From NCBI GenBank assembly GCA_043820815.1, contig JBDRDJ010000004.1:14956-78955 (forward strand): DNA of 64,000 bases, read 5' to 3'. Below the pieces are notes generated by a model. It saw only the letters and a list, made by a program, of their open reading frames with translations. It was not told the DNA's origin and made no database searches. A program made the translations under genes and the position numbers. Below, piece after piece: positions 29,769-55,277 of this stretch (position 1 is the first letter of the stretch; every line of letters begins with the position of its first letter). The stretch comes from Candidatus Omnitrophota bacterium (GTDB lineage Bacteria; Omnitrophota; Gorgyraeia; Duberdicusellales; 4484-171).

Positions 29769-29800
29769 AATTTAATCTGCGGCCATCTGCGTTAAAACTA

Positions 29801-31307: not shown

Positions 31308-32210
31308 ATGCCTAAGAAAGTTTTAACTATTTTAGTTTTATGTGTAATCCTTATAGCAGGATGTGATAATCTTCCCTGGAATAAGCCGCAACAGCCAAAA
31401 CCGGAAAAATCGCCGGTTCTTTCCTATAAAGGCCCTCTTTTAGCCCAAGTAGGCAATTGGGCTATAGGAAAAATAGATTTTGAAAACCAGCTTAAAGCCG
31501 TAAGGGCCATAAATGCTGAAATTGATACCGAGAATAAAGAATTCCAAAAGCGTTTTCTCCAGGAGCTGGTAGATATCGAGACTCTGGCTCAGGAAGCAGA
31601 AGCTCAGGGTGTGGATAAGGAAAAAGAGGTTCAGGACGCAATAAGAAATTTTAAGCGTACCCTCCTGGCACAGAAGATGCTCGGTGACATAGCAAAAAGC
31701 ATTACTGTAACCGATGTGGAAATAAAGAATTTCTACGAAAGTAACAAATTGGCTTTAACAGAGCCTCAGCAGACAAAAGTGCGGGAAATAGTTGTTTCAA
31801 CTGAGACGGAGGCCAAAGACCTTTTAATTAAACTTCTTAAAGGCGAAGATTTCGCAAGCCTTGCAAAAGAATACTCCGTGTCAGAGAATAAAAGCAAAGG
31901 GGGAGACCTGGGGTATTTGATTTTTGGTTCGGAAAATATCCCGGAGAGGCTCAAGAATTTTGAGAAGTTCTGGCAGACAGTATTCACTACTGAAAAAGGA
32001 AGCTCTTCGAATTATTTTAAAGGAGAAGAAGGATACTATATTATCAAGGTTGAAGATATAAAAGAAGGAAAAATCACTCCTTTAAGCGAAGTCCGCGAGG
32101 CAATAGAAGAGAGGCTGCGCAGGGATAAAATAGAGAAGAAAAAAGACGATATAGTCTTTAGCGCCAAGTCAAAATTCGAAATAAAGGTTAATAGCCATTT
32201 GCTCGACTAA
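31308..32210 (+). CDS. Parvulin-type peptidyl-prolyl isomerase lipoprotein (PrsA/SurA-like)
   Basis: Lipobox LIAGC; parvulin segment FASLAKEYSVSENKSKGGDLGY. Confidence 0.8.
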   Translation: MPKKVLTILVLCVILIAGCDNLPWNKPQQPKPEKSPVLSYKGPLLAQVGNWAIGKIDFENQLKAVRAINAEIDTENKEFQKRFLQELVDIETLAQEAEAQGVDKEKEVQDAIRNFKRTLLAQKMLGDIAKSITVTDVEIKNFYESNKLALTEPQQTKVREIVVSTETEAKDLLIKLLKGEDFASLAKEYSVSENKSKGGDLGYLIFGSENIPERLKNFEKFWQTVFTTEKGSSSNYFKGEEGYYIIKVEDIKEGKITPLSEVREAIEERLRRDKIEKKKDDIVFSAKSKFEIKVNSHLLD

Positions 32211-32228: not shown

Positions 32229-33041
32229 ATGGACAAAAGAATGGTGAACATAGTAATCGGTCTTATTGTGGGTATGTTTGCGCTATTTCTGATTTGGCAG
32301 CATAACGCAAGGCAGGAAGCGAGAATCCAGAGGCTTATTGAGGAAGGCAAACTCGTTGAAGTCGTTGTCGCAAGGAGAGACATACCTAAAGAAACCACTA
32401 TAACTCAGGATATGATTGAGAAGAAGGTAGTAAAGAAGAATACTTTAAACCCGAATGACTTAAGTGATGTTCAATCCGTTATCGGCCAGTTTGCCGAGAC
32501 CGATATTTTAAGAGGCCAGTATATAAGCGCAAACATGTTAAGGATTTTAACGGGGGCGGATTACCTTTCTCAGACAGTTCCACCGGGTTACCGGGCGATA
32601 ACTATTCCTGTTGACAAAATTTCCGCTATCGAAGGCTTACTTCGTCCGGGAGACAAGGTCGATATTATAGGAACTTTCAGCCTGCCCACAGGCTCAGGCC
32701 AGAATGCTCCCGTTGTTGTCAATGTGTTTCAGAATGTTAAGATTCTTGCGACAAATAAAAACATATCTCCTTATCAACAGTCAACGAGCATCGATACTAT
32801 AACGCTTTCTCTTAAACCGGAAAATGTTAAAGTGCTTACCTATATGTTAGAGTGGAGCAAACTCAGGCTGGTGTTAAGGTCTCCTTTGGATACCGGCGAA
32901 GAGTTTGGGTATTCAGCGGTCACATTTGATAATTTAATGGCGCGCCTGGGGTTTACTCCGCCGCCTCCGACGTCTAAGCAAGATGAGCTTACTGTTGAGG
33001 TTTACCGCGGCTCACAAAGCGGCGAGGAACCTTTGCGCTGA
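32229..33041 (+). CDS. cpaB: Flp pilus assembly protein CpaB/RcpC
   Basis: N-terminal TM, SAF-like VVVARRDIPKETTITQDMI, RcpC-type beta domain; sits upstream of the secretin. Confidence 0.8.
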   Translation: MDKRMVNIVIGLIVGMFALFLIWQHNARQEARIQRLIEEGKLVEVVVARRDIPKETTITQDMIEKKVVKKNTLNPNDLSDVQSVIGQFAETDILRGQYISANMLRILTGADYLSQTVPPGYRAITIPVDKISAIEGLLRPGDKVDIIGTFSLPTGSGQNAPVVVNVFQNVKILATNKNISPYQQSTSIDTITLSLKPENVKVLTYMLEWSKLRLVLRSPLDTGEEFGYSAVTFDNLMARLGFTPPPPTSKQDELTVEVYRGSQSGEEPLR

Positions 33042-33050
33042 TATAAGAAG

Positions 33051-33158
33051 TAACCTTTATAAGATACTTCGTCCGCCTGCTGCGGACTCAGTATCAATTC
33101 GGCCTTATGACTTATGAAAATCAAAGATTTTTATAAGTCATGGCCTCATTGAAGGAGG
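33051..33158 (+). promoter_or_regulatory. Repeated two-hairpin 5' leader, copy C (between cpaB and the secretin)
   Basis: Conserved flanks identical to copies A/B; second hairpin replaced by the unrelated stem GGCCTTATGACTTATGAAAATC/GATTTTTATAAGTCATGGCC; GAAGGAGG 6 nt before TTG 33165. Confidence 0.7.
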
Positions 33159-33164
33159 ATAACC

Positions 33165-34793
33165 TTGAGAACGATAATAATAACTTCTTTCATATTTATA
33201 TTCTCGTTTTTCTCTATTTTTCCTTTCACAACTCTAACAGCTCAAAATTTTCTAAACCTCGAAGAAGATGACAAAGAAATATCGCTTATTGTGGGTGAGG
33301 TTAATGTTTTTAGTGTTTTATCTCCCAAGCGGGCATCTATCCGTAATCCGGAAATCGCTGATATTACTAAGATTTCCGGAAATGAGGTTGTTGTCGTGGC
33401 AAAACAAGGCGGAGAAACCGTACTTACAATATGGGACAAAGCGGGGAAAAACGAATTTTTTATTACTGTCCAGCCCCAGGATCTCGATAGAGTCAGTGAG
33501 AAACTCAAGAATTTGATAAATAAAAATTTAGAGATAGAGAACGTATCTTTTAAAAATAATGAAGTTACCGGCAAGATAATGGTTATGGGAGAGGTAACAC
33601 CTGTTGAGAAAGCGAATATCGAAAGCGTTCTCGAGCCCTTTGCTGCAAGCGTAAATAACCTTCTCTCCTTAAAGGAAGAGAGCAAGATGGTTGAGATTGA
33701 ATGCCAGGTTCTTGAATTGAACAAGAGTAAAATAGACCAGTTGGGTGTTAACTGGCAGGATTATTTGCAATTTAGAGAGGAGCCTTATTCGGCTCCCGGC
33801 ACCACTTCTACGGGAGGCGTCAGCACCACCCTGAATAAAATAAAACCCTGGAGCGCTATTTGGCCTGTGCATTTATGGTCAAGAGACGCACTTACCGCGC
33901 GTATCAATATGATTATTGAAGACGACAAGGGAAGAATCCTTTCCAGGCCTCAGCTTATGTGTTTAAGCGGAAAAGAAGCAAAGCTGACAGTAGGAGGAGA
34001 AGTCCCCTATGTTAGTTCATCGACAACCAATGAGACCGGCACAGGAGTTGATGTTGAGTATAGAGAGTACGGGGTAATCTTAACTTTACAGCCCAATGTG
34101 ATTTCCGGCAACAGAGTCCTTCTTAACGTAAGCACTGAAGTAAGCGAGCTTGACTGGACAAACGCTATCACGGTTTCGAGCATAAGCATCCCCGCATTCA
34201 CTACCCGCGAAGCCGAAACCGTTTTGAATGTTGACTCCGGAGATACTATATTCATCGGCGGCCTCATCAAAAACGAAGAATCAAAAAATATTGATAAAGT
34301 TCCCGGTTTGGCAAACATTCCTATTCTGGGGGCGCTTTTTAGGTCTAAGGATTTTCAGAATGACGAAACCGAGCTTGTCATAACCTTAACGCCTATAATC
34401 AGGGAAAGTAACATTGAAAAGCCCCGGCCGGCTGCCGAGGGCCAGGGGCGTGCTCCGATTTCTTTAAAACCGGTTGTGTTTCCCGAGTACCTTACACATG
34501 ATAAAAACTTAAACGAATATATACTTAAAGTCCAAAACATGATTTTTAAATCCCTTGGCTATCCCAGGCTCGCAGGCGAAGCGGGCTGGCAGGGAGATTT
34601 GAAACTCAAGATTCATTTAAACCAGGAAGGACATATTATCGAGGCAAGAGTAATTGAGTCTTCCGGGTATGAGTATTTTGATAGTAGTGCTCTTGATGTC
34701 GCAAAGTCTTTAAGTCCGTACCCGCCGTTTCCTTCTAGCGTAGAGCTGGAAGACCTATGGATAGACATACCTATAGCCTATAGAATAAAGTAG
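33165..34793 (+). CDS. cpaC: Tad-type secretin (CpaC/RcpA) with a C-terminal TonB-C-like domain
   Basis: Signal peptide; pilus-formation N-domain (LIVGEVNVFSV…VVVAKQGGETVLTIWD); secretin core (VPGLANIPILGALFRS); last ~90 aa (GYPRLAGEAGWQGDLKLKIHLNQEGHIIEARVIESSGYEYFDSSALDV) look like TonB_C. Confidence 0.8.
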   Translation: MRTIIITSFIFIFSFFSIFPFTTLTAQNFLNLEEDDKEISLIVGEVNVFSVLSPKRASIRNPEIADITKISGNEVVVVAKQGGETVLTIWDKAGKNEFFITVQPQDLDRVSEKLKNLINKNLEIENVSFKNNEVTGKIMVMGEVTPVEKANIESVLEPFAASVNNLLSLKEESKMVEIECQVLELNKSKIDQLGVNWQDYLQFREEPYSAPGTTSTGGVSTTLNKIKPWSAIWPVHLWSRDALTARINMIIEDDKGRILSRPQLMCLSGKEAKLTVGGEVPYVSSSTTNETGTGVDVEYREYGVILTLQPNVISGNRVLLNVSTEVSELDWTNAITVSSISIPAFTTREAETVLNVDSGDTIFIGGLIKNEESKNIDKVPGLANIPILGALFRSKDFQNDETELVITLTPIIRESNIEKPRPAAEGQGRAPISLKPVVFPEYLTHDKNLNEYILKVQNMIFKSLGYPRLAGEAGWQGDLKLKIHLNQEGHIIEARVIESSGYEYFDSSALDVAKSLSPYPPFPSSVELEDLWIDIPIAYRIK

Positions 34794-34794
34794 T

Positions 34795-36963
34795 ATGCAG
34801 GCACGCATAATAACATTATTCAGCCCTAAGGGAGGGGTAGGTAAAACCCTTTTTTCTCTTAATATCGCGGTGAGCCTTTCCTCAAAAGCAAGGCGGGTGT
34901 TGTATCTTGACCTCGATTTGGGCGCTCCTCAATCAACCTCGAAACTATTGGGAATTTCGGCTAAGTATTGTCTTTTTAATCTCATAGAACAGTTTGATGA
35001 ATTCGCCCAGAAGAAGCGCAATGTGCACAGCTACCTTTCCCGGTATAAAGGCAATTTAGCCTTTTTGCCTTCGATAACCAAGCTTTCCCAGAGGTCAAAG
35101 ATAACCTCGCAGGTAATAAAGGATTTCTTAAACCTCGTTCAAAACGATTTCGATTTTATCATCATAGACGGCGGAAGCACTTTAACCGACAACCTTATTA
35201 CCACCTTTGATTTCTCAAGCCTTATTCTTCTTGTGTTAACACCTGATACTCTTTCAATTTATCAAACCGAGTGGCTTCTTGATACCCTTCAGAGCATCGG
35301 GTTTCCTTCGCGTATGATAAAAGTAATATTAAACCGTGCCGAGAGTAAAGGTTCTATCAGCTGGCAGGAGATAAAAGCTATTCTGCCTTCCGAAATTATT
35401 GCGCTCGTTCCATCAGAAGGAAAAGTCGCAGGAGTATCTATGAACAAAGGCGTTCCGATTGTTGACTATAGCCCCAATTCTAAGATTTCAAACGCAATTG
35501 ATAAACTTACAAAAGATTTAATTGACAGAGCTGATATCCATATTGAACATAAAGACTTAACCCAAATCCGCCTATCAAAAGACTTAGAAGTCCAGGAAGA
35601 GGAATTGTTCTGGGAGAAAATAGGTTTGGCTGAGAAGACTGAAAAGATAGAGCTTAGGGAAGAGGAAGATGAGGTGATAAGATTCAAAAAAAGGGTTCAC
35701 CAGCAGCTTATCGAAGAACTTGATTTAAAACGCCTGTCTATCGAAGTTTTCTCATACAGCCCTGATCGAATAAGGGAATTGCGTAAGCGGGCAGAGAGAG
35801 TTGTGGCCAATATAATAAGCAAAGAAGCCGGAGGATTCATCTCTTCTCTTGAGGTGCGTAAGAAAGTGACCAAAGAGATACTGGATGAGGCTCTTGCTTT
35901 CGGGCCTCTGGAAGATCTTCTCAAAGACCCGTCCACAACAGAGGTAATGGTTAACAATAAAGACCATATTTACATAGAGAGAGAAGGTAAGCTTTATTTA
36001 ACAACCAAGAAGTTTACCAGCAACGATCAGGTAAGAATAGTTATTGAAAGAATACTTGCTCCTTTAGGAAGGAGAATTGATGAGTCTGTTCCTTATGTTG
36101 ACGCCCGCCTTCCTGACGGCTCACGCGTTAATGCTATTATATCGCCCCTTTCTTTGACCGGGCCGACTTTAACCATAAGAAAATTCGCTCGCCAGCGTTT
36201 TACCATGGACCATTTAATAAATAAATTCGAGAGTTTAACCCCTGAGATAGCCTTGTTTTTAAATGCCGCAGTCAGGGCCCGCAAAAATATCCTGATTTCA
36301 GGCGGAACCGGTTCAGGAAAAACAACATTCTTAAATATTTTATCTGAGTATATCCCTGATGAAGAGAGGATTGTTAGTATTGAAGATTCAGCCGAGCTTA
36401 AACTTCACCAGGCACACTGGGTAAGGCTTGAGGCGCGGCCGCCTAATATTGAGGGAAAGGGCGAGATTACAATAAGGGATTTATTCAGAAATTCCCTTCG
36501 CATGCGCCCTGACAGGATAATCGTAGGTGAAGTTAGAGGCCACGAAGTTATTGATATGCTTCAGGCCATGAATACAGGCCACGACGGGAGTATGTCAACA
36601 ATTCATGCCAACACAACCCATGATGTTTTAATAAGGCTTGACAGTATGATTTTGATGAGCGGCATAGAACTTCCTGTGCGTTCCATAAGAGAGATGATTG
36701 CTTCAGCCCTTGATTTGATTGTCCAGACAGAGCGTTTGTCAGACGGGTCCCGTAAGGTAGTTGCTGTTACAGAAGTTGTCGGCATGCTCGATGAAACCCA
36801 TATAAACCTTCAGGATATATTTTACTACCGCCAGACCGGCGTAGATGATAAAGGAAAAGTTAAAGGTTATTTTACTTCTTTAGGCTATATTCCTACATTC
36901 TACGATGAAATTCGGGCCCGCGGCATTGATTTACCCAGAGAAGTATTCATCTCTAAAGAATAA
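34795..36963 (+). CDS. TadZ/CpaE-like ParA/MinD ATPase fused to a TadA/CpaF secretion ATPase
   Basis: N-terminus SPKGGVGKT (deviant Walker A); C-terminal half GGTGSGKTT, IVSIEDSAEL, TGHDGSMSTIHAN (T2SSE/VirB11 family). Confidence 0.8.
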   Translation: MQARIITLFSPKGGVGKTLFSLNIAVSLSSKARRVLYLDLDLGAPQSTSKLLGISAKYCLFNLIEQFDEFAQKKRNVHSYLSRYKGNLAFLPSITKLSQRSKITSQVIKDFLNLVQNDFDFIIIDGGSTLTDNLITTFDFSSLILLVLTPDTLSIYQTEWLLDTLQSIGFPSRMIKVILNRAESKGSISWQEIKAILPSEIIALVPSEGKVAGVSMNKGVPIVDYSPNSKISNAIDKLTKDLIDRADIHIEHKDLTQIRLSKDLEVQEEELFWEKIGLAEKTEKIELREEEDEVIRFKKRVHQQLIEELDLKRLSIEVFSYSPDRIRELRKRAERVVANIISKEAGGFISSLEVRKKVTKEILDEALAFGPLEDLLKDPSTTEVMVNNKDHIYIEREGKLYLTTKKFTSNDQVRIVIERILAPLGRRIDESVPYVDARLPDGSRVNAIISPLSLTGPTLTIRKFARQRFTMDHLINKFESLTPEIALFLNAAVRARKNILISGGTGSGKTTFLNILSEYIPDEERIVSIEDSAELKLHQAHWVRLEARPPNIEGKGEITIRDLFRNSLRMRPDRIIVGEVRGHEVIDMLQAMNTGHDGSMSTIHANTTHDVLIRLDSMILMSGIELPVRSIREMIASALDLIVQTERLSDGSRKVVAVTEVVGMLDETHINLQDIFYYRQTGVDDKGKVKGYFTSLGYIPTFYDEIRARGIDLPREVFISKE

Positions 36964-36971: not shown

Positions 36972-38036
36972 ATGGCTCAAGGTATTGAGAAGCTTGCAAA
37001 ACTATTGGCTGACTCCAAAATAACCGAAATAATGATAAACGGCCCCCAGGCTACATGGCTCGAACTTGGGGGTAAGAAGTTTAAAGTAGATGTCATTTTC
37101 AGCGAGGATGACGTTAAGGATATAATCGATGAGTATTTTACCAAAGTCGGGAAAACAATATCTTACTTTCATCCTTTTGGCGATGTTTGCCTTCCTGACG
37201 GTTCCCGTGTCAACATCATCCAGCATCCACTTTCGCGCTGCGGGACCGCGATAACCATAAGAAAATTTGACCGCGAACTGCATTCTTTAGACGACTTAGT
37301 TGTAAGGGGAACTCTAAACCAGAAGATGGCAGAGTTTCTAATTGCCTGTATAAGAGGAAGAATCAATATTCTTTTTTCCGGCGCAACTGGCTCAGGCAAA
37401 ACCACCACCATGGAGATGCTCTCTCATCATATACCCGAACAGGAAAGAGTCGTAACCATAGAGGATACCGCTGAACTTGTTCTCCATCAGGATAATTTGG
37501 TGCCCATGGAAACGCGCACTCCCGATGAGCATGGAAAAGGAGAAGTCAGCCTGCGTGACCTTATACGAAATGCTCTTCGCATGCGCCCGGACAGGATAAT
37601 CGTCGGCGAGGTAAGGGGGCCTGAGGCGCTTGAGATGATTCAGGCTATGTCCACCGGCCACAGGGGAACCTTGGCTGTAATTCACGGAAATTCCCCACAG
37701 GAGATAACAAGCAGGATGGAAACCCTGATACTTTCCTCAGGCATAAAGCTTCCCATTGAAGAAATAAGGCGTATGATCGGTAAAACCTTAAATATTATAA
37801 TCCAGCAGGAGCGTTCAGATGATGGTGTACGCCGTATAACTCATATTTCTGAAGTGCGCGGTGTCGAGCGCAATGAGGTCGGCCTCCAGGATTTGTTTAT
37901 CTTCCGCCGTGAAACCAAGGATCATGAAGGAAGAATCCAGGGCAAATTCAAGACCGTTATGAGAAATTATCCCCGTTTTTTCCCCGAATTTCAGCGTCTC
38001 GGCCTTCTTGACGATAAGGCCTTCTCCGATTATTAA
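36972..38036 (+). CDS. Second TadA/CpaF-family secretion ATPase (no N-terminal extension)
   Basis: ITEIMINGP, GATGSGKTT, VVTIEDTAEL, TGHRGTLAVIHGNS. Confidence 0.85.
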   Translation: MAQGIEKLAKLLADSKITEIMINGPQATWLELGGKKFKVDVIFSEDDVKDIIDEYFTKVGKTISYFHPFGDVCLPDGSRVNIIQHPLSRCGTAITIRKFDRELHSLDDLVVRGTLNQKMAEFLIACIRGRINILFSGATGSGKTTTMEMLSHHIPEQERVVTIEDTAELVLHQDNLVPMETRTPDEHGKGEVSLRDLIRNALRMRPDRIIVGEVRGPEALEMIQAMSTGHRGTLAVIHGNSPQEITSRMETLILSSGIKLPIEEIRRMIGKTLNIIIQQERSDDGVRRITHISEVRGVERNEVGLQDLFIFRRETKDHEGRIQGKFKTVMRNYPRFFPEFQRLGLLDDKAFSDY

Positions 38037-40105: not shown

Positions 40106-40450
40106 ATGAAATTAAGAAAATCACAATCAATACTCGAATATATAAGCGTTTCGATTGTATTCGCAGTTGTAGGCGTTGCTGCCTTTATCGCCGGCATCAA
40201 AGGCGCCGCCGACACATACCAGGGAACAACAGAAACTTATTTCTCTGAAAGCACCCTTATGGGAAAAACATTAGAAGACAAAGTTGATCAGGGCCAGTAC
40301 AAATGGCCGTCTAATTGGGCCGAGCACACTGATCAATTCGGCGGTTCTGTGCCCCAGGATCAAATAATCAATGACCCGGGCGAAAACAACGGTTATACCG
40401 CAGGCCAGGCCCGCGGCGAGCTTTACGAAATGCCAAACTGGAGCCGATAA
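40106..40450 (+). CDS. Flp/Tad-type pilin-like protein (a)
   Basis: AGGGAGG RBS; MKLRKS-QSILEY-ISVSIVFAVVGVAAFIAG. Confidence 0.6.
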   Translation: MKLRKSQSILEYISVSIVFAVVGVAAFIAGIKGAADTYQGTTETYFSESTLMGKTLEDKVDQGQYKWPSNWAEHTDQFGGSVPQDQIINDPGENNGYTAGQARGELYEMPNWSR

Positions 40451-40623
40451 TGAATAAGAAAAAAATTAAAGCCCAAAGCATTATGGAATACGTGGCATTA
40501 GTATTAATCACATCCGCGGCAGTATCGGCAATCGCGTTTTATGTTTCAAGAAGCATCGAGGTAAGAGTAAGGCATCTAAACCAGGAGTTAAACGAAGCCT
40601 CAAGAGGCGCAGGTAAGATATAA
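40450..40623 (+). CDS. Flp/Tad-type pilin-like protein (b), 57 aa, not in ORF track
   Basis: ATG overlaps the previous stop (TAATG); MNKKKIKA-QSIMEY-VALVLITSAAVSAIAFYVSRSIEVRV. Confidence 0.55.
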   Translation: MNKKKIKAQSIMEYVALVLITSAAVSAIAFYVSRSIEVRVRHLNQELNEASRGAGKI

Positions 40624-40634
40624 GAGAGGTCACA

Positions 40635-41030
40635 ATGAAAAATAAGCTAAAAAAAGGCATAAAAACCCAGAGCATCCTTGAATATATCGCTGTTTTAACA
40701 GCGGTTGTGATCGCAATTGTTGCCGGAACAGTTGGTCTAAGGCAGGGTGTTGATACAGGCTTAAGCCAGATACAGGATGAGGCGACGAATAATATCATGA
40801 AGCAGACTGAGCCTCCGGAGAATATTGCGAGCCAGGATTTCTATGAGCCCCCGGGAAATTTAAATGACCCCAAATGGAACGACCAAACAGATACTTACGG
40901 CGGTGCAGAATATAATCAGGGAGAGTATTATTTTCACCAGGGCGAAAGTGATATGGGCTATGTTAAGGAAGTGGAGAAGTCTCTTCCGGCTGTGATAAGC
41001 GGCAGTTTACCAGAGACAGAGATTAAATAA
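40635..41030 (+). CDS. Flp/Tad-type pilin-like protein (c)
   Basis: MKNKLKKGIKT-QSILEY-IAVLTAVVIAIVAG. Confidence 0.6.
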   Translation: MKNKLKKGIKTQSILEYIAVLTAVVIAIVAGTVGLRQGVDTGLSQIQDEATNNIMKQTEPPENIASQDFYEPPGNLNDPKWNDQTDTYGGAEYNQGEYYFHQGESDMGYVKEVEKSLPAVISGSLPETEIK

Positions 41031-41040
41031 GGGAGCAAAG

Positions 41041-41205
41041 ATGTTATTTAAACGCAAATCCCAAAGTTTCCTTGATTACGCGGCGTTGATAGCCCTTGTT
41101 TCACTATCTTTGATAGCCATGACCGGTTATATATTCAGCTCCATAAGAGCGCGCACACATCACGCCTGGGCTGATATATATGATCCGATAACCGGAGTTA
41201 GATAA
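41041..41205 (+). CDS. Flp/Tad-type pilin-like protein (d), 54 aa, not in ORF track
   Basis: MLFKRKS-QSFLDY-AALIALVSLSLIAMTGYIFSSIRAR. Confidence 0.5.
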   Translation: MLFKRKSQSFLDYAALIALVSLSLIAMTGYIFSSIRARTHHAWADIYDPITGVR

Positions 41206-41262
41206 TATATGTTTTTGAAGAATCTTTGTAAGATTAGAATAAAAATAGGGGAGGTGGATAAA

Positions 41263-41472
41263 ATGAGAGTTAAAAAAGCTCAGAGCATCTTAGAATATAT
41301 CATTGTGTTGTCAGCTATTATTGTTGCCGTAATTGCCGCGGCAAACGGGCCTATAAGAAATGCCATCAACCAGATGTTTACTGACTCCTCAGAGGTTATG
41401 ACAACCCAGACAGCTACATTTCTAAATAACGCAGGAAGAAACCCGGATGGCGATAATATTAACCAGCAATGA
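41263..41472 (+). CDS. Flp/Tad-type pilin-like protein (e)
   Basis: GGGGAGG RBS; MRVKKA-QSILEY-IIVLSAIIVAVIAA; 69 aa, closest in size to a classical Flp. Confidence 0.6.
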   Translation: MRVKKAQSILEYIIVLSAIIVAVIAAANGPIRNAINQMFTDSSEVMTTQTATFLNNAGRNPDGDNINQQ

Positions 41473-41529
41473 TTAAAAGTATACTGTCACAAGAAAAGCT
41501 ATGACAAAATAATTTAAGGAGGTGTCCCG

Positions 41530-41841
41530 ATGTTAGTAAAGATGAAAAAAGCACAATCAACGGCGGAATACGCAATTCTCTTTGCCTTGGTTGTAGCGGC
41601 GGCCATGGGAATACAGAACTATGTAAAACGCGGCCTTGAGGCCCGCGTGTTTGATGCAGTAAATGACTACGTTGCCACAACCGGCGGCCAAACCCTGCAA
41701 TACGAAGGAACAAGCGGTGAAAAAATAACGACTAATCAAAGACAGGAAAGGACATTTGTTGAGGATTTTGATAATCAGGATTCTCCGATTACCATAACCG
41801 AAGACATGAAAGCCGATCACACATCCTTCACACGTCAATAA
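41530..41841 (+). CDS. Flp/Tad-type pilin-like protein (f)
   Basis: AAGGAGG RBS; MLVKMKKA-QSTAEY-AILFALVVAAAMGIQNYVKRGLEARV. Confidence 0.6.
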   Translation: MLVKMKKAQSTAEYAILFALVVAAAMGIQNYVKRGLEARVFDAVNDYVATTGGQTLQYEGTSGEKITTNQRQERTFVEDFDNQDSPITITEDMKADHTSFTRQ

Positions 41842-41924
41842 GGCTTAAAGCAAAGGATTTGTTAAAACTTTTGACATAGAGCCAAAAGTTATTCCGATGG
41901 CAAAATTTTAAGGAGGTGTAAGAC

Positions 41925-42251
41925 GTGTTACAGAAAATGAAAAAATCACAAAGCACATTAGAGTATGCTCTTCTTATAGGTGTAGTCGTGGGAGCATTGC
42001 TTACCATGCAGACCTATATTAAAAGGTCAATCCAAGGAAGGTTGGTTACCGTAGGTGACCAGATAGGCGACCAGTATTCACCCGATTTAACCAAGCGCAA
42101 CGAGCACATGTTAGTAACCAACGACAGAGTTGTTGAAGCGACAACCGGAGGAGTTGCCGGTTTTATGGAAACAACTGTTGAGGGAGGCCGCACTGAATCT
42201 CAAACTAGAAGAGAGGTAAGCCCGCTTGACCAGGAGACCTTTGTTGAATAA
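41925..42251 (+). CDS. Flp/Tad-type pilin-like protein (g)
   Basis: AAGGAGG RBS, GTG start; MLQKMKKS-QSTLEY-ALLIGVVVGALLTMQTYIKRSIQGRL…GDQIGDQY. Confidence 0.6.
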   Translation: MLQKMKKSQSTLEYALLIGVVVGALLTMQTYIKRSIQGRLVTVGDQIGDQYSPDLTKRNEHMLVTNDRVVEATTGGVAGFMETTVEGGRTESQTRREVSPLDQETFVE

Positions 42252-42286
42252 GGCCCAAGCTAAGGATAATGCAAGGAAGGGTGATA

Positions 42287-42628
42287 ATGAGAATAAGCCG
42301 TAATAACACTATAAACAAACGGTTTAAGAAAGCCCAGTCTGTTTTGGAATATGCACTGTTAGTAGCAGTTTCCGTAGGCGCTCTTTTAGGCGCAGGAGCC
42401 TATATAAAAAGAGCTATGCAGGGCCAGCTTCAGGCAACCAGCGACCAGATGGCAGACCAATATGCAAACGGGCTTACGGATTTGCACGAGCAGTTCACAT
42501 CAGAATCAAGAACAGCCCAGGTAAAATGGCCGGGGCCGCTTGATACAGCCCGTTCAAAAGGGTCATTTTCAGCAAGATCAGAGCGCAAATCGCGGCCTTT
42601 AGATGAAACACAACCCTTTAATAATTGA
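42287..42628 (+). CDS. Flp/Tad-type pilin-like protein (h)
   Basis: …KRFKKA-QSVLEY-ALLVAVSVGALLGAGAYIKRAMQGQL…SDQMADQY. Confidence 0.6.
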   Translation: MRISRNNTINKRFKKAQSVLEYALLVAVSVGALLGAGAYIKRAMQGQLQATSDQMADQYANGLTDLHEQFTSESRTAQVKWPGPLDTARSKGSFSARSERKSRPLDETQPFNN

Positions 42629-42667
42629 AACGAATTGCGAAATACGAAATCACGAGGTAATCATTAG

Positions 42668-43369
42668 ATGGTTATGAAATTAAAGAAAAACCCTAAAAAA
42701 GCCCAATCTTTCTTAGAATACTCTTTTCTAATCGCAATAGCCGTTGTAACACTCCTTGCCATGGGTAGTTATTTATCAAGAGGCATGCAGGGCAATTTAA
42801 AACAGCACGTTGACAACTTAGGCGGTGAAAGAGTAACCGGAGATACCTTTACCCCGGGTAAGTGGTATGGCGACGGCGATTTCTCAAATGTGGCAAAAAT
42901 AACCAGCTGGGCTTTTGAATACGAAGGAAGAGAGGGTTTCTCAGTTATGACAGGAGGCATGAAAAGGAGCGATTTAAATAAAATTACAGGAACCGCTAAT
43001 TTAAATGAAGTCCCCGAGGCAAATATTAACTTTGAATCACAGCTTTCCGGAGAGGAAAAAGCCCTTGTCAATTCGGTATTCGGTTCATCGTTTGACCCCG
43101 GCATGGATGTTATGGTTAACAATGTAAATTCTCAAACTCCTCATTTCTCAAGCCCCAACGGCGGCATTGTTGAAATGGGCGAATTTGCCGCAGATAGCTT
43201 AAGTAACCAGGCAGTTGGTATTGTTGAAGAATACGTAACTCAACCTGACATTAACCAGGCTCAGCAGGATATTGAAACATTTAAAAACAACCCTGATTAT
43301 AACCCCGAGGACTTAACAGGTTTAAATTACGATGAATTAAATGTAGATGCAAGTGAGGCAGTCAAATGA
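42668..43369 (+). CDS. Flp/Tad-type pilin-like protein with a long C-terminal extension (i)
   Basis: …NPKKA-QSFLEY-SFLIAIAVVTLLAMGSYLSRGMQGNL; 233 aa. Confidence 0.6.
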   Translation: MVMKLKKNPKKAQSFLEYSFLIAIAVVTLLAMGSYLSRGMQGNLKQHVDNLGGERVTGDTFTPGKWYGDGDFSNVAKITSWAFEYEGREGFSVMTGGMKRSDLNKITGTANLNEVPEANINFESQLSGEEKALVNSVFGSSFDPGMDVMVNNVNSQTPHFSSPNGGIVEMGEFAADSLSNQAVGIVEEYVTQPDINQAQQDIETFKNNPDYNPEDLTGLNYDELNVDASEAVK

Positions 43370-43779
43370 AAACCATAAACAAAAAAGGAAATGCGATAGT
43401 CGAATACAGCGTCTTATTATTTATTGTTATCGGCTTTTTATCAAGCATGCATTATTTTTTAAACCGTCATATCCAGGCCCGCGTGCGCCATGAAACAAAT
43501 CAAAAGGTTCGCCGGCCAATGCCGTTTATATGGCAAAGCTCAGTTGAATTCAGCAGTCAAAAGGCAAACCACGACCGGAAAGAATATGCTTATGGCGATA
43601 CAATTGTTGAATCGGATTTCCAAACGTCTTATACTGTTTTAAGCGCGCCGCCGCCGCCAAAAGTGCCTTTACCAATTGCCAGCCTTCATATCCAGGATGC
43701 GGCAATGCCGGCACCGGGACAGTCAAATCCTGGACATAGACGCATGTCGCATGATGAGGGAACTAACCCTGAGGATTAA
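43366..43779 (+). CDS. TadE/TadF-like minor pilin candidate (j)
   Basis: ATGA overlap with the previous gene; MKTINKKG-NAIVEY-SVLLFIVIGFL…FLNRHIQARV. Confidence 0.5.
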   Translation: MKTINKKGNAIVEYSVLLFIVIGFLSSMHYFLNRHIQARVRHETNQKVRRPMPFIWQSSVEFSSQKANHDRKEYAYGDTIVESDFQTSYTVLSAPPPPKVPLPIASLHIQDAAMPAPGQSNPGHRRMSHDEGTNPED

Positions 43780-43797
43780 TAATTAAAGGAGTATAGA

Positions 43798-44376
43798 ATG
43801 AAAATAGAGTCTGTTAACAAATCACAAGCAATGGTTGAAATGGCTGTTTTAGGCACACTTCTGCTTGTTGCTGTTGGCATTGTTGTAACTTATGTTGCCA
43901 AGCTTAATAATGACCAGTGGGTGCTTATGCAGGCATTTAGAAGTGCCCTTGCTAAAGCTCATGATACAAATGAGATTGTTTCTTACGGAACTTGGGATGA
44001 CCGCAGAATGGCTTCGGTTAGCGAGCCCATTTTAGGCCAGAGAATTACATCAAGCGGTTCAGCAGTTGTTCATTGGTCAATTCCCAGCGTTGAAGGTTCA
44101 GGGGAGAGCCCGCAAGATAAAACTTATGTTAAAGTTAACGGTGGAATGATTCCTAAGCTTTATGAGTATGACCTTGGTTCAGGCCAAAGCGGAGGGGTTG
44201 AACCGATATATATAACAACAAAACATTCAAAAGTAACAATTGATACCCAGAATGATAAAACGCAATCTACCCGTTCAGCAGGAACCGCAGAAGCTATGAT
44301 TTATAAAATTGCAGAGAAAAACTATCCGCAGGCAAGGTATTCCGGAGCCTCACGCACCTTAACCGGAGGAAAGTAA
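43798..44376 (+). CDS. TadE/TadF-like minor pilin candidate (k)
   Basis: AAGGAG RBS; MKIESVNKS-QAMVEM-AVLGTLLLVAVGIVV. Confidence 0.5.
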   Translation: MKIESVNKSQAMVEMAVLGTLLLVAVGIVVTYVAKLNNDQWVLMQAFRSALAKAHDTNEIVSYGTWDDRRMASVSEPILGQRITSSGSAVVHWSIPSVEGSGESPQDKTYVKVNGGMIPKLYEYDLGSGQSGGVEPIYITTKHSKVTIDTQNDKTQSTRSAGTAEAMIYKIAEKNYPQARYSGASRTLTGGK

Positions 44377-44381
44377 GTGTT

Positions 44382-44502
44382 ATATCAAAAATCAAAAATT
44401 AAATATCAAAATGACAATGTAAAAATAAAATTTTTAAGATTGAGTCTAAACATTTTAAATTTTAATTTGTAATTTTGATTTTTGATATTTGATTTTTAAT
44501 TT
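44382..44502. repeat. AT-rich inverted-repeat element without cargo
   Basis: Left arm ATATCAAAAATCAAAA… pairs with right arm …TTTTGATTTTTGATAT. Right arm TTTTAATTTGTAATTTTGATTTTTGATATTTGATTTTT is ~40/43 identical to 45228-45270. Confidence 0.55.
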
Positions 44503-44517
44503 AAAATCGGAGGATAA

Positions 44518-44778
44518 ATGAAAAAGATAAGCTCACAAAGTTTACTTGAATCAGTCTTGGCATTTGCCGCGGCAACGGCGATAATAGGAGCGGCAATGGG
44601 TATTTTCGGCTGGGGCATTGCCCATATTCCCGCACGCCAGGCAACTTATGAGGCAACCCGCGTATTAGCCGGAAGGTCGCGGGGGCGCAATGTCGATGAG
44701 AGAGGCGCTCATGGCGGCGCATACGCAGTCCCGGTTTGGCCGACATACTCAACCGGCGCCGGATTGGCAGCCTACTGA
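44518..44778 (+). CDS. Pilin-like small protein (l)
   Basis: GGAGG RBS; MKKISS-QSLLES-VLAFAAATAIIGAAMGIFGW; GC-richer tail. Confidence 0.45.
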   Translation: MKKISSQSLLESVLAFAAATAIIGAAMGIFGWGIAHIPARQATYEATRVLAGRSRGRNVDERGAHGGAYAVPVWPTYSTGAGLAAY

Positions 44779-45219: not shown

Positions 45220-45270
45220 TTTTTACATTTTAATTTGTCATTTTGATTTTTGATATTTAATTTTTGATTT
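45220..45270. repeat. Right AT-rich inverted repeat of the four-helix-bundle cassette
   Basis: TTTTTACATTTTAATTTGTCATTTTGATTTTTGATATTTAATTTTTGATTT. Confidence 0.5.
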
Positions 45271-45293
45271 ATTTCAATATCAGGAGGCAAAAC

Positions 45294-46592
45294 ATGGGGA
45301 GGCGCAACCTCTTTTTATCAATCCGCAAAAGCCAAATCTCAGTCTATTTTATCGCCGCAATCGCAACCCTTATCGCAATCACCTTTATAATAATAATTGT
45401 GGGAAAAACCGCAAAAGATAAAACCCACTCCGCGAATGCCGCAGACGCCGGAGCTTTGGCTGCTGCTTCTGTTATGGCCAATGCTTTTAATTATGTTGCT
45501 GACCAGAATGATAGTGATAAAAGTAAAAGAGGCTCGATGAAAGAAGAACATAACAGAGGTGTTTCCAGTGACCAGCCATCGCAGCAACTTAAGTCAAAAT
45601 TGGCTCAGGATAAAAATTATACGGATGAAAAGATAGCTTATGGCTCTGCTGCAGGTTTTCTTTCTCCGATAGCACTTCCTCAAGACCGTATAATAATACA
45701 TGAGGGAGACGTTGCTGCACAAACCGTTTCTGATGCCGAGCGACACAGGAAAGATCATGATCAAGAAATGCAACAGAAGTTGGATGCTGTAAAGAGGGCT
45801 GTAGATGGTAACCAAGAGAACCCCGATAATTATTATAACAATGCTCTTTATATGGGTATTATGATTAATTTTCAGAATTCCGGCATTATGCACCGCTTAG
45901 GCGATAAAACTAGAGATGAATATCAAGCATTTCTCGATGAAATTAAGCCCGACAATGTCCAAAGCGGCATGCCTTATACTTTTCCCTGGGTAGACGGTTC
46001 TGCCCGATTCCATATGGTTACAGCAATTGTTGAGATAGAACCAGCCGATAATTGGAACGTAAGGATAAATAGGGACAATGAAACTAAACAGGAAGAGGAT
46101 GCGCGAAAAGCCGAAGCTGATTTTAGAAATGCTCAGCAGAAGGGTGTGGAAGCACAAAAAAATCGATTGGATGGCGTGGCAGATCCACTATATGACCCGA
46201 TATTACATACCCCGCCAGGGACGGTCAATGAAAATGAAGCGCACAGTTTCATGGATAGCGGAAAAAGAACATATGATGATTGGTTCGAAGGGCAACAAGA
46301 GGCTCAGAACCTGATAATAAGAAATAGTAGCGAAACTCAAGATTACACTGTTGCTTATGTGGAAGATATTATTCACTCACAAACCGTATACTCGGCTAAT
46401 TTTCAATTTCATATGGGAAGTCCGGTAAAAAGCATCATGTTCGGCGATATTGATGAAATAACCTTTTATCCACCTGTTCAAAGTTCTGCTGTAGCAAGTT
46501 TTAATTGTACAGGAAGAGGAGACATAAGCAGGGGTGACGCTAATGGCGATGCAGAATCAGGGTTTGAGGCATGCTTGATTGCAGCATTTTAA
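45294..46592 (+). CDS. TadG-like protein (Tad_N N-terminal domain)
   Basis: AGGAGG RBS; …SIRKS-QISVY-FIAAIATLIAITFIIIIVGKTAKDKTHSANAADAGALAAASV resembles the pilus-assembly TadG N-terminal pattern. Confidence 0.6.
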   Translation: MGRRNLFLSIRKSQISVYFIAAIATLIAITFIIIIVGKTAKDKTHSANAADAGALAAASVMANAFNYVADQNDSDKSKRGSMKEEHNRGVSSDQPSQQLKSKLAQDKNYTDEKIAYGSAAGFLSPIALPQDRIIIHEGDVAAQTVSDAERHRKDHDQEMQQKLDAVKRAVDGNQENPDNYYNNALYMGIMINFQNSGIMHRLGDKTRDEYQAFLDEIKPDNVQSGMPYTFPWVDGSARFHMVTAIVEIEPADNWNVRINRDNETKQEEDARKAEADFRNAQQKGVEAQKNRLDGVADPLYDPILHTPPGTVNENEAHSFMDSGKRTYDDWFEGQQEAQNLIIRNSSETQDYTVAYVEDIIHSQTVYSANFQFHMGSPVKSIMFGDIDEITFYPPVQSSAVASFNCTGRGDISRGDANGDAESGFEACLIAAF

Positions 46593-48610: not shown

Positions 48611-48717
48611 CTATCACTCCGCGAGTGATAGTACAGGTGAGAAGAAATAATGTTTGAAGAGAAGCTTATTTTATTATAAAATATTAAATATATGTTACTA
48701 TCACTCCGCGAGTGATA
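48611..48717 (+). repeat. Two REP-like hairpins upstream of the RAYT gene
   Basis: CTATCACT-CCGCG-AGTGATAG at 48611-48631 and CTATCACT-CCGCG-AGTGATA at 48698-48717, same orientation. Confidence 0.7.
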
Positions 48718-48759
48718 TATAGGGAGAATGTAATAAAGCGGGAAAGGAAGAGTTTCAAG

Positions 48760-49479: not shown

Positions 49480-49497
49480 TAAAAGAGGAGGCGATAA

Positions 49498-53538: not shown

Positions 53539-54399
53539 ATGGATGCTCCTGTACCAATTTTCTTTGCTTACGGACTGCTTCTGCTATCAATATGCATTAT
53601 CTGCTATTACGGCGTAACATTTCTTCTTAAAAGATTTGACCGCGCCCAGCAAAGCAAAGCCGAGAAAACCGCCGCCCAGTTTGAGGAGATGTTTCTTTTC
53701 TTAAGAAAAGAAGCTCTTATTGTTCTATACATATTTGTGCCTCTTCTTTTAGGCTTAGTCAGTTTTATCGCGACAAAGAAGTGGTGGGTTGCTTTAAGTT
53801 TTGCCTTGGTTGGGGCGTTTTTCCCTTTATGGCTTGTGCGTTTTCTTGAAAGAAGAAGGCAAAATAAATTTGTTATTCAGCTTGTCGATGGGCTTATGAT
53901 CATGAACAGCTGTTTAAAGGGCGGCTTGACATTAATCCAGTCTTTTGAAATCTTAGCAGAGGAAATATCCCCTCCAATGAGCCAGGAAATTATGCTGCTT
54001 AACCGTGAAATTAAAGTAGGTGTTACGCTTGAAGAGGCGCTTCTGAGGCTTAACAACAGGATGCCGTCTGAGGAGATGATACTTATTTCTTCGGCTATTC
54101 TGGTTGCGCGCGAAACAGGAGGCGACTTAACTAAAGTTTTTTCAAGGCTCATCGAGACAATTAGAGACAGGCTTAAGCTAAGGGAGTTGGTTTCAACTCT
54201 TACGCTTCAGGCGCGGCTTCAGGCAATAATAATTTCCCTTCTTGGCCCTGCGTTTTTCTTTATCGTGCGAAAAATAAAACCTGACCATTTTGATATTATG
54301 TGGAAAGATGAGCTTGGAAGGATGATTTTAGGCATCGCGCTTGTGCTTCAGATAATAGGTTTTATATTAATAATTATATTCGGAAAGGTTGAGATTTAA
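53539..54399 (+). CDS. tadB: Tad pilus inner-membrane platform protein TadB (T2SSF family)
   Basis: QLVDGLMIMNSCLKGGLTLIQSF, polytopic; adjacent to tadC. Confidence 0.8.
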   Translation: MDAPVPIFFAYGLLLLSICIICYYGVTFLLKRFDRAQQSKAEKTAAQFEEMFLFLRKEALIVLYIFVPLLLGLVSFIATKKWWVALSFALVGAFFPLWLVRFLERRRQNKFVIQLVDGLMIMNSCLKGGLTLIQSFEILAEEISPPMSQEIMLLNREIKVGVTLEEALLRLNNRMPSEEMILISSAILVARETGGDLTKVFSRLIETIRDRLKLRELVSTLTLQARLQAIIISLLGPAFFFIVRKIKPDHFDIMWKDELGRMILGIALVLQIIGFILIIIFGKVEI

Positions 54400-55277
54400 T
54401 GAGCTTGCTACTTTATATTTTATATGGATTGTTGGTCTTTGGGTTTATCCTGTTTTTCATAGGGCTTTTTCCAAAACCGCCTGATACGGTTTCCATATTT
54501 GGAGATGAGGCAAAAGAAAAGCGGGGTTCGGTACTTTCCCCCATACTTGCGCCCTTTGCGCCGTTTAACAAAATAATTCTTAAGTCATTTCGTTTAGAAG
54601 AGCGCTTAAACAAAAATATTTACCTGGCGCGCTGGAGAGTTACTCCCGCGGAATTTCTCGTAGGCAAAGAGCTGTTGGCTTTGGTTTTTCCCTTGGCCAT
54701 GATTATGTTTAATTTAGGAAATATCTGGTGGCGCCTGGGTGCGGCATTATTTGGTTTTATACTTCCCGATATTATTCTTAACTCAAGGGTGCGCAGGAGA
54801 AAATTCCTGATTAATCGGGTTTTGCCTGAAACAATCGATTTGCTCGGGCTTTGCGTTGGCGCCGGCTTGGATTTTATGGCCGCGGTGCGCTGGGTCGTAG
54901 ATAAAGTAAAAATCAACCCCATGATCGAAGAATTAGGATTGGTGTTAAAAGAAATAAATGTAGGCAAGCCGCGCGTTGAATCTCTTCGCGCAATGGCTAA
55001 GAGAGTTGAAATTCCCGATGTTACTTCATTTGTTAGAATCTTAATTCAGGCAGACCGCATGGGAACTCCTGTTGAGGAAACTTTTAAAATATTATCAGAA
55101 GACACCCGTATGCGCAGGTTTCACCGCGGCGAACGCCAAGCAATGAAAGCCCCTCTAAAAATGCTCATCCCTCTGATTTTCTGTATCCTTCCTGTCATTC
55201 TAATTATCGTAGCCGGCCCCATCCTTATCAGGTTCATGAAAGAAGGCGTATTCGGCCCTGCCGGCCTTGCCAGATAA
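54399..55277 (+). CDS. tadC: Tad pilus inner-membrane platform protein TadC (T2SSF family)
   Basis: LPETIDLLGLCVGAGLDFMAAV, RRFHRGERQAMKAPLKM. Confidence 0.8.
   Translation: MSLLLYILYGLLVFGFILFFIGLFPKPPDTVSIFGDEAKEKRGSVLSPILAPFAPFNKIILKSFRLEERLNKNIYLARWRVTPAEFLVGKELLALVFPLAMIMFNLGNIWWRLGAALFGFILPDIILNSRVRRRKFLINRVLPETIDLLGLCVGAGLDFMAAVRWVVDKVKINPMIEELGLVLKEINVGKPRVESLRAMAKRVEIPDVTSFVRILIQADRMGTPVEETFKILSEDTRMRRFHRGERQAMKAPLKMLIPLIFCILPVILIIVAGPILIRFMKEGVFGPAGLAR

Follow-up and report, generated by a model that had tools for sequence, protein, structure and literature searches.

What does a TonB C-terminal domain do at the end of a pilus secretin? The question is raised by a gene at positions 33165..34793 (+) of a 64,000-nucleotide stretch of DNA from a Candidatus Omnitrophota bacterium (GenBank assembly GCA_043820815.1, contig JBDRDJ010000004.1, forward-strand positions 14,956 to 78,955), the whole of which is called the window below. 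Omnitrophota are ultra-small, mostly uncultured and probably predatory or parasitic bacteria, and the Tad pilus is one of their main candidate host-interaction machines. Secretins require accessory factors for outer-membrane targeting, for multimerisation and for bearing the load of a retracting pilus, the factor varying by system, and the C-terminus of other secretins is a short pilotin-binding S-domain. The original prediction, made by reading the sequence alone, held that the window secretin continues past its core into a TonB-C-like domain, which might anchor the channel to peptidoglycan or to a periplasmic partner. The analysis described here confirms that the gene encodes an RcpA/CpaC-type Tad (Flp) secretin with a C-terminal TonB_C domain, all in one gene.

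The gene is complete and forms a single uninterrupted open reading frame (ORF) of 542 aa plus stop. It starts with a TTG codon 5 bases 3' of a AAGGAGGA Shine-Dalgarno sequence (33152-33159), and the NCBI protein P0001 is identical to its product over the same length (542 aa). Residues 1-26 (33165..33242, +) read as a Sec signal peptide ending in TTLTA before a mature QN, with an AlphaFold2 (AF2) helix at residues 2-18 and no lipobox. The mature protein opens with a pil_N domain, which is the typical N-domain of RcpA/CpaC Tad secretins; N0/STN or AMIN stands there in secretins of the type II and type III secretion systems and of type IVa pili. In the window protein, this T2SS-T3SS_pil_N beta-sandwich covers residues 37-101 (33273..33467, +; Pfam PF13629, E 1.8e-11) with a predicted local distance difference test (pLDDT) of ~90. 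Foldseek finds it similar to a VirB9 N-terminal domain, and the N-domain of RcpA has been published as VirB9-like (PMC10499894). A small alpha/beta ring-type N-domain follows at residues 107-169 (33483..33671, +; AF2 pLDDT 87-91), with helices at 107-121 and 146-159 and strands at 127-132, 137-144 and 163-169. The secretin core occupies residues 252-412 (33918..34400, +) and matches Pfam PF00263 with E 5e-47 and 160 bits against a gathering score of 27.5. Among the structures in the PDB, phmmer places it closest to 8jvb, a secretin from Acidithiobacillus (E 3e-44), and to 8odn, the RcpA of P. aeruginosa (E 2e-33). The NCBIfam secretin models also match the protein, but below their equivalog cutoffs.

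Beyond the core, which closes with '...LVITLTPII' at residue 412, the chain runs on for 130 aa, as the original prediction had estimated. The first part of this extension is a K/E-rich segment of 29 aa, residues 413-441 (34401..34487, +). Since pLDDT is <50 over residues 416-441, the C-terminal domain (CTD), residues 442-542 (34488..34790, +), appears to hang on a disordered tether. In the full-length AF2 model, which was built on a 54-sequence alignment as a monomer, the confident parts are the pil_N domain, the ring-type domain, most of the secretin core and residues 442-540. Secretins fill ranks 1-37 of the Foldseek matches to this model, and TonB CTDs and a VirB9 N-terminal domain come after them.

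The CTD is confirmed as a genuine TonB_C at the sequence, profile and fold levels, far past chance. Pfam PF03544 scores 52.1 bits at residues 465-541 (E 9.4e-14; gathering score 24.6) over model positions 4-79 of 79, and TIGR01352 (tonB_Cterm) matches residues 465-542 over positions 2-76 of 76 (E 1.7e-16, 60.3 bits against a cutoff of 27.1); the Pfam family TonB_2 is matched as well, at residues 480-529 (E 1e-4). In a phmmer search of the PDB, residues 449-542 align end to end with the CTD of Helicobacter pylori TonB, the two having a common end point, and the 'IPIAY' of the last strand is identical in the window secretin and in H. pylori TonB ('HLKIPIAY'). The AF2 model of residues 436-542 has a pLDDT of 90.1 and a predicted template modelling (TM) score of 0.79, with the topology helix-helix-strand-strand-helix-strand, which includes the alpha-beta-beta-alpha-beta fold of TonB/TolAIII CTDs. 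Without exception, ranks 1-24 of its Foldseek search in the PDB are structures of TonB, HasB, FusB or TolA domain III. The top match is H. pylori TonB-CTD (6sly; E 1.7e-5, TM 0.73, root-mean-square deviation 2.0 Å, 29% identity), and TM scores to TonB-type PDB structures reach 0.73-0.77. Both TonB-CTD (6sly/5lw8, 2gsk/2grx) and TolA domain III thus resemble the window domain over their full length in sequence and fold, including the YP and SSG motifs.

The elements of the domain are a helix at 447-463, the YP motif at 466-467, strand b1 at 477-486, strand b2 at 491-498, the SSG motif at 499-501, a second helix at 503-515, the loop SPYPPFP at 517-523 and strand b3 at 530-539. The b3 strand, 'DLWIDIPIAY' (34752..34781, +), is the homologue of the strand to which the Ton box pairs in the BtuB-TonB and FhuA-TonB complexes (2GSK, 2GRX). 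The peptide that the original prediction had quoted and placed at 34512-34793 is correctly located, being residues 450-542 and the stop codon, and the profile matches and the TonB-type fold are those it had suggested looking for.

The same architecture recurs throughout the relatives of the window secretin. Among the best 120 homologues drawn from a 5.8-billion-protein collection (38-62% identity; 520-567 aa if complete), PF13629, PF00263 and PF03544 are present in 120/120, and the organism-named matches are Omnitrophota or Omnitrophica in every case. Scanning one genome per GTDB species gave 118 relatives; in the best 79 of these loci (32-60% identity) the query is matched to residue ~540 in all, barring contig ends. 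The titles of the 79 loci are Omnitrophota, or generic or crude labels of bulk metagenome-assembled genomes (MAGs; 'uncultured Planctomycetia', one 'Deltaproteobacteria') as submitted, and spread beyond Omnitrophota was judged from named database matches only. When the 79 loci were compared together with the window, a single ORF was found at the same position in 77 of the 80 regions. The survey of architectures proposed originally therefore returned both domains on one chain, in homologues and in species-level loci alike, and the missed stop or frameshift that had been considered as a way the prediction could fail is contradicted by the conserved single ORF. Across the homologues compared, this Omnitrophota family of Tad secretins has the fusion as its standard form, which is therefore not peculiar to the source genome.

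In an alignment of 166 non-redundant members, the mean frequency of the top residue is 0.55 in the CTD, 0.56 in pil_N, 0.53 in the other N-domain, 0.62 in the secretin core and 0.23 in the linker. These frequencies show purifying selection on the fusion as strong as that on the N-domains. The best-conserved element of the CTD is b3, with a mean top-residue frequency of 0.73 and an entropy of 1.0 bit, exceeding the average of the secretin core. Six residues of the extension are invariant in the 166 sequences (Y452, P467, G477, G489, S500 and D506), hallmark positions of TonB among them, and Y466 (99%), P523 and P536 are 98-99% conserved; in the SSG motif, S499 is kept in 86% and G501 in 94% of the sequences, beside the invariant S500. 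The spacing from P410 to Y452 ranges over the family from 24 to 63 aa with a median of 40, and K makes up 12% of it, E 11% and P 7%. With 2-7 residues left after b3, the protein lacks an RcpA-like terminal tail. Pairwise identities of core and CTD correlate (r 0.60), which argues for a single old fusion that was vertically co-inherited.

Public databases already contain the fusion under automatic names, yet it is undescribed in the literature searched, in agreement with the original prediction, which knew of no such fusion in RcpA/CpaC secretins; the papers covered concern Omnitrophota, Tad systems and secretins. The main Omnitrophota genomics paper discusses how RcpA is related across lineages but has no mention of TonB (PMC10066038), the giant-gene paper is silent on both secretins and TonB, and no paper containing both the PF00263 and PF03544 accessions was found in the literature searched. 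A 2026 preprint reports genes with a 'TonB C-terminal domain' flanking giant-protein loci that contain secretion and pilus genes and draws no connection between them and a secretin. In the databases, the NCBI name is 'TonB family protein', since TIGR01352 is the sole NCBIfam model to pass its cutoff, and homologues are called 'pilus assembly protein CpaC' by JGI. The NCBI name hides the Tad secretin in Omnitrophota annotations, and the assignment given here corrects a widespread misannotation.

The accessory factors of Tad systems are just beginning to be resolved, with TadD in Pseudomonas and CpaD and CpaI in Caulobacter. The unstructured S-domain of P. aeruginosa RcpA binds the tetratricopeptide repeat (TPR) lipoprotein TadD through its last 4 residues, a contact that secretin formation requires (PMC10499894). 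Caulobacter can dispense with its TadD orthologue; there, the lipoprotein CpaD, encoded directly downstream of cpaC and predicted to have an OmpA-like peptidoglycan-binding fold, belts the barrel and is essential, and CpaI bridges the secretin to the C-terminal beta-hairpin of CpaB (PMC13170226). It is noted that many Tad systems lack CpaI, and that neither an S-domain/TadD tail nor a downstream CpaD is universal among them (PMC13170226). The window locus has much in common with other RcpA/CpaC systems: the pil_N domain and secretin core, CpaB/RcpC, CpaE/TadZ, CpaF/TadA, TadB/C, Flp-like pilins and TadE/G-like genes. However, unlike RcpA with its S-domain tail and Caulobacter CpaC with its separate CpaD belt, the window secretin ends in a tethered TonB_C and has no conserved tadD or cpaD/rcpB beside it.

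The latter statement comes from a neighbourhood survey in which ORFs were called, clustered and ordered relative to the secretin over 10 kb per side in the 79 loci and the window. No TPR/TadD, RcpB/CpaD or OmpA-like family was found among the conserved neighbours within 10 kb of the secretin in the 79 loci, which upholds the observation that no pilotin, TadD or RcpB function is evident in the locus; nothing lies between the secretin gene and the cpaE::cpaF gene, which starts 2 nt past the secretin stop and stands at position +1 in 65 loci. A TPR protein at 20695-21798 (-) was considered as a TadD-like pilotin and rejected, as it has a signal peptide without a lipobox Cys, lies 11 kb off on the opposite strand and is not a conserved neighbour.

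The TonB_C subfamily of the secretin also occurs in other contexts. When the 107-residue CTD was searched against 1.84 billion representative proteins, 5967 matches were obtained at E <= 1e-3 and 294 at E <= 1e-10, and the best 144 new representatives were classified with hidden Markov models (HMMs) built from the family, with examples checked against Pfam. Among these 144, ~73 are secretins with one CTD and 13 are secretins with two CTDs in tandem (640-1091 aa); the remainder contain no secretin domain. The two-CTD secretins include P0125, P0126, P0130, P0131, P0133, P0135, P0136, P0138, P0139, P0158 and P0278, some with very long linkers, and one is present among the 79 loci, in an Omnitrophota single-cell genome (L073, gene 1577-3517). 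With a divergent two-CTD secretin as query, the named relatives are again Omnitrophota. The best non-secretin matches to the CTD belong to two types of protein. The first consists of TolC-like OEP proteins (P0153, P0201, P0268) with 2-6 N-terminal TonB_C repeats of the secretin-CTD subfamily; two of their genes are at L080 7853-10243 and L081 832-3222, and one OEP cluster is named Omnitrophica by NCBI. Like the window secretin, these are outer-membrane channels with the domain in cis, but with the domain N-terminal and in 2-6 copies. The second consists of Peptidase_M56 (BlaR1-like) proteins (P0151, P0156, P0217, P0221), in which 3-6 tandem repeats, among the closest relatives of the CTD, lie C-terminal to an inner-membrane sensor-protease domain. 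An SP[YF]P.FP loop is common to the secretin CTD and the tandem repeats. The architecture with TonB_C arrays N-terminal to OEP is not known to have been described, and no experimental study of OEP or M56 TonB_C proteins is known. It is also observed that the OEP gene of L080 adjoins a giant ORF of >2294 aa.

No canonical stand-alone TonB, with a membrane anchor, a Pro-rich rod and one CTD, was found among the best 144 representatives as a donor of the domain; the matches there with a single domain are all short fragments, and many can be seen to be truncated secretins. A search of six-frame translations with the family HMM, covering the window and the 79 loci, found TonB_C copies only in the secretin genes. 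TonB_C is absent from the CpaC-type secretins that come next in similarity, those of Armatimonadetes, Acidobacteria and other groups, which carry N-terminal LysM and/or BON, or nothing; LysM and BON precede the secretin core in P0383, P0370, P0357 and P0388 (Armatimonadetes and MAGs). Since CpaC-type secretins of other phyla bear LysM/BON and those of Omnitrophota bear TonB_C, lineage-specific accessory domains in cis are a general theme in Tad secretins, with TonB_C as the Omnitrophota version. As a separate case, P0326 (727 aa) has a C-terminal extension of ~280 aa with no Pfam family.

Considering these results together, we propose, with somewhat more confidence than doubt, that the tethered TonB_C is a built-in periplasmic anchor or docking module that replaces accessory factors acting in trans, namely the TadD pilotin and the CpaD belt. 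The proposal of replacement in cis is based on the domain lying at the periplasmic C-terminus, where accessory contacts occur, and in the place that cpaD takes in the gene order. The S-domain would have been replaced by a 24-63-residue tether and a complete TonB_C. With the secretin C-terminus on the periplasmic side of the barrel wall, a 13-14-mer would be surrounded by a ring of 13-14 (or, with two copies, 26-28) tethered domains, which could be regarded as a cis version of TadD on the RcpA tail or of the CpaD belt. Such a module would fix the channel in the envelope and/or aid its assembly. The window secretin itself is not a TonB and would perform no energy transduction of its own.

Two modes of binding can be envisaged. 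In one, the ring would attach multivalently to the cell wall or another envelope polymer; in the other, an extended peptide of a partner would be captured by beta-strand augmentation on b3, in the manner of TonB and TolA. Both modes are compatible with the data. Three points speak for the cell-wall mode: two unrelated kinds of outer-membrane channel carry tandem arrays, there is an analogy to LysM, AMIN and OmpA-like modules, and the domain is expected to lie near the wall. The analogy has a clear limit. The AMIN of PilQ and the LysM of CpaC-type secretins (as in Armatimonadetes P0383, with LysM, pil_N, BON and secretin) are likewise cell-wall-directed modules built into a pilus secretin, sometimes in tandem, but they are N-terminal and have an established peptidoglycan-binding fold, whereas the TonB_C of the window secretin is C-terminal and has none. 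No Pfam match to AMIN, LysM, OmpA, SPOR or PG_binding was found in the window secretin, so that the likeness to peptidoglycan-anchoring modules is one of position and multivalency. Another parallel is the GspA/GspB (ExeA/ExeB) pair. ExeB, which is TonB-like and periplasmic, makes contact with the secretin and, with the peptidoglycan-binding ExeA, is needed for secretin assembly where pilotins are unused (PMC4098917); however, ExeB is a separate, inner-membrane-anchored protein that is TonB-like by topology and Pro-rich region, and no TonB_C is fused to the secretin. The idea of the original prediction, an anchor to peptidoglycan or a periplasmic partner replacing a pilotin or RcpB, is thus plausible and is strengthened by the position of the domain and by its use elsewhere in the phylum.

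Several points weigh against this proposal. The conserved peptidyl-prolyl isomerase (PPIase) lipoprotein encoded upstream could be the true assembly factor, acting in trans as a chaperone or pilotin-like protein, in which case the role of the CTD would be a different one. Genes for TadD or CpaD homologues could lie in other parts of the genome, the region covered being 10 kb per side in the 79 loci and the 64-kb window. The conservation of b3 could be purely structural, an 'xPIxY/F' ending being common among TonB_C domains. As for the cell wall, TonB CTDs are reported to bind peptidoglycan in one older paper, that of Kaserer et al. 2008 in J Bacteriol, and a literature search for peptidoglycan binding by the TonB CTD gave nothing relevant. 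If the proposal of a built-in anchor or docking module is true, the domain is a new solution to the accessory-factor problem and offers the first function for a TonB CTD outside inner-membrane proteins of the TonB/TolA type.

The docking mode has a more specific form, in which the two halves of the Tad machine would be coupled across the envelope. The TonB_C of the secretin would capture a Ton-box-like strand of CpaB or the N-terminal tether of the PPIase lipoprotein, joining the inner and outer halves by the logic of TonB and its receptors with inverted polarity. CpaB/RcpC (32229..33041, +), a 270-aa inner-membrane-anchored alignment protein (Pfam RcpC, E 7.9e-21; SAF), belongs to a family found in 76 of the 80 regions compared and directly upstream of the secretin in 72 loci. 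In the alignment of 76 CpaB sequences, a short C-terminal motif, T-V-E-[IV]-Y-[RK]-G (residues 255-261; 32991..33011, +), is a candidate docking strand or hairpin; in its longer form, T-V-E-[IV]-Y-[RK]-G-x-x-K-E-x-V-P, it is strongly conserved and preceded by a variable P/Q/E-rich linker. The motif, read as a T-V-E-I-Y-R-G hairpin, is probably the counterpart of the hairpin by which Caulobacter CpaB docks. In favour of the coupling, all solved TonB_C/TolAIII functions involve beta-augmentation with a partner peptide (matches 2gsk, 2grx, 6i97, 9dc4, 6s3w), b3 is the most conserved element of the CTD, and CpaB keeps its short motif behind a variable linker in 76 loci. Caulobacter uses an extra protein, CpaI, as the bridge from CpaB to the secretin (PMC13170226), and no CpaI-like gene is conserved in the Omnitrophota loci compared. 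However, the CpaB hairpin is general to Tad systems and docks on a pil_N-like beta-sandwich in Caulobacter (PMC13170226), which makes the window secretin's own pil_N the default docking site. TolC-like proteins, for which there is no CpaB partner, moreover carry the TonB_C subfamily in 2-6 copies, which argues for a more generic ligand. Trans-envelope coupling is therefore, in our estimate, a tentative option with roughly a fifth of the weight. A different candidate for a Ton box, the mature N-terminal 'EISLIVGE' of the secretin, was rejected, as it is the first strand of the folded pil_N.

Returning to the built-in anchor, its widest form would be that TonB_C has been repurposed in Omnitrophota as a general cis tether of outer-membrane channels, with 1-2 copies on the Tad secretin and 2-6 on TolC-like proteins. 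We regard this as a doubtful generalisation at present. Its truth would make the domain of higher interest, as outer-membrane machines would then be coupled in a previously unrecognised way, either to the cell wall or to partners in the inner membrane. Combined with the CpaB motif, it would give an inverted Ton system, in which the channel-borne TonB_C captures the Ton-box-like C-terminal strand of CpaB and in which a pilotin, CpaD and CpaI might be unneeded.

Alternatively, the CTDs might bind one another with no external ligand, strand-exchange dimers stapling neighbouring secretin subunits together in place of S-domain contacts. Some solved TonB-CTD fragments are dimeric (1u07 chains A and B are among the Foldseek matches) and the S-domains of type II secretins contact neighbouring subunits; tandem duplication within one chain is also compatible with pairing between domains. 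However, a long, variable and disordered tether is ill-suited to a rigid staple, ring stapling does not explain arrays of 2-6 copies on trimeric TolC-like proteins, and the dimerisation of full-length TonB CTDs is considered to depend on the fragment. This clamp is improbable.

The name 'TonB family protein' might also be taken at face value, with the CTD linking the secretin to a motor of the ExbBD/TolQR type or to TonB-dependent receptors, so as to gate the pore or power uptake. TonB paralogues have indeed been tied genetically to type IV pilus assembly, through P. aeruginosa PocAB-TonB3 (PMC5285504), and to transformation in A. baumannii (PMC8811193). The link of PocAB-TonB3 to type IV pili is genetic and concerns assembly and localisation, an interaction with the N0 domain of PilQ having been proposed (PMC5285504); this is, however, a complete ExbBD-TonB-like inner-membrane complex that works in trans on a type IVa system, without a fusion. 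In contrast to TonB, the window domain is not carried on an inner-membrane anchor by a Pro-rich rod. In place of the N-terminal transmembrane segment by which TonB contacts ExbBD, the protein has a cleavable signal peptide and then its secretin domains, the linker of 24-63 aa is K/E-rich with 7% Pro instead of a Pro-rich spacer, and the domain is anchored to the outer membrane. No ExbB, ExbD, TolQ, TolR or TonB-dependent receptor was found among the scanned window ORFs (>=100 aa) or the conserved neighbours in the 79 loci. As everything that ties TonB to ExbBD is missing from the window secretin, energy transduction is very unlikely, and 'TonB protein' is rejected as a description of it on its architecture.

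An artefact, in which an error of sequencing or assembly or an overlooked stop codon would have merged a secretin gene with a small TonB-like gene, can be dismissed: the low-complexity, poorly conserved linker is the sole hint of it, whereas the frame is continuous, a single ORF is kept in ~200 homologues at 32-100% identity from independent assemblies of many studies and platforms, the linker stays in frame at all its lengths, no ribosome-binding site or start context is needed, and the fragments that start in the linker are located on short contigs or are themselves short and partial.

The genes around the secretin form a recurrent Tad locus with the conserved order PPIase lipoprotein, CpaB, secretin::TonB_C, CpaE::CpaF, second ATPase or DUF192, helix-turn-helix (HTH) protein, pilins and TadE/G-like. 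The first gene (31308..32210, +) encodes a PpiC-type, SurA/PrsA-like PPIase lipoprotein (Pfam Rotamase_2, E 7.5e-18; SurA_N_3); its matches to the NCBIfam models for peptidylprolyl isomerase and PrsA are sub-cutoff. Its lipobox is LIAG-C19 with Asp at +2, and the G-C is conserved in homologues. The family is present in 75 loci and stands at position -2 of the secretin in 70, and the classical tad/cpa gene set has no such lipoprotein. The protein may serve the secretin or the pilins as a dedicated chaperone or in the manner of a pilotin.

Downstream of the secretin, the cpaE::cpaF gene (34795..36963, +) encodes a 722-aa fusion of a CpaE/TadZ-like ParA/MinD domain to the CpaF/TadA ATPase, with Pfam matches to AAA_31/CbiA/ParA at residues 4-210 and to T2SSE at 369-644 (E 3.6e-64). 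A second, shorter CpaF-like ATPase of 354 aa follows (36972..38036, +; Pfam T2SSE, E 3.1e-46), at position +2 in 21 loci; the two ATPases may be an extension/retraction pair. In 28 loci, position +2 is taken by a DUF192 (COG1430) protein (e.g. L073 5723-6067) instead of the second ATPase seen in the window. The next gene (38294-39739, +) encodes a 481-aa protein with an N-terminal HTH and weak, sub-threshold transposase-like matches. A transposase insertion splitting the locus was considered here and rejected, since the Pfam and NCBIfam matches are sub-threshold and the family (~500 aa, with no Pfam family) is a conserved member of the Tad locus in 42 loci, each from a different genome. The protein may be a regulator.

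The pilin region consists of ~12 consecutive small pilin or minor-pilin genes of 54-233 aa (40106..44778, +) with Flp/class-III-signal-like N-termini, in which K-[KA]-A-Q-S-x-L-E-Y is followed by a hydrophobic helix and the Class_IIIsignal match is weak. Pilin clusters 5, 7, 12 and 14 are conserved downstream in other loci. A repertoire of ~12 such genes is unusually large for a single Tad locus. A TadE/TadG-like protein of 442 aa comes next (45264..46592, +; Pfam PF13400, E 5e-4, and 4e-8 in a homologue), and the TadB and TadC platform proteins of 286 aa and 292 aa are encoded further on (53539..55277, +; Pfam T2SSF, E 3.8e-19 and 8.9e-16). Between the pilin and TadE/G genes and tadB/tadC, the interval 48712-53159 contains an IS200-like Y1 transposase, a DinG-like helicase and, on the minus strand, an AAA_14/DUF4143 ATPase; the Tad locus of the source genome appears to be interrupted.

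A few minor observations were made in the same region. The genes for ComEA (HHH_3) and ComEC (Competence domain) lie at 29400-31246 (+), directly upstream of the PPIase-cpaB-secretin group; this adjacency, which most other loci do not conserve, hints that the pilus might serve DNA uptake. The 123-nt intergenic region between cpaB and the secretin gene (33042-33164, +) has a predicted fold with two strong hairpins, of which the stem at 33063-33095 is GC-rich and the one at 33101-33145 is long and AU-rich. The minimum free energy is -46.2 kcal/mol, with a z-score of -6.4 against shuffles, and there is no U-tract after the hairpins. The hairpins may be an element of mRNA processing, stability or attenuation. 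Just downstream of tadB/tadC, a 1426-aa ORF (57242-61522, +) has no Pfam match at E <= 1e-3. Finally, two small secreted paralogues at 46731-47597 and 47805-48248, which belong to no family, have the motif 'EIL.FYR...GW/F' in common.

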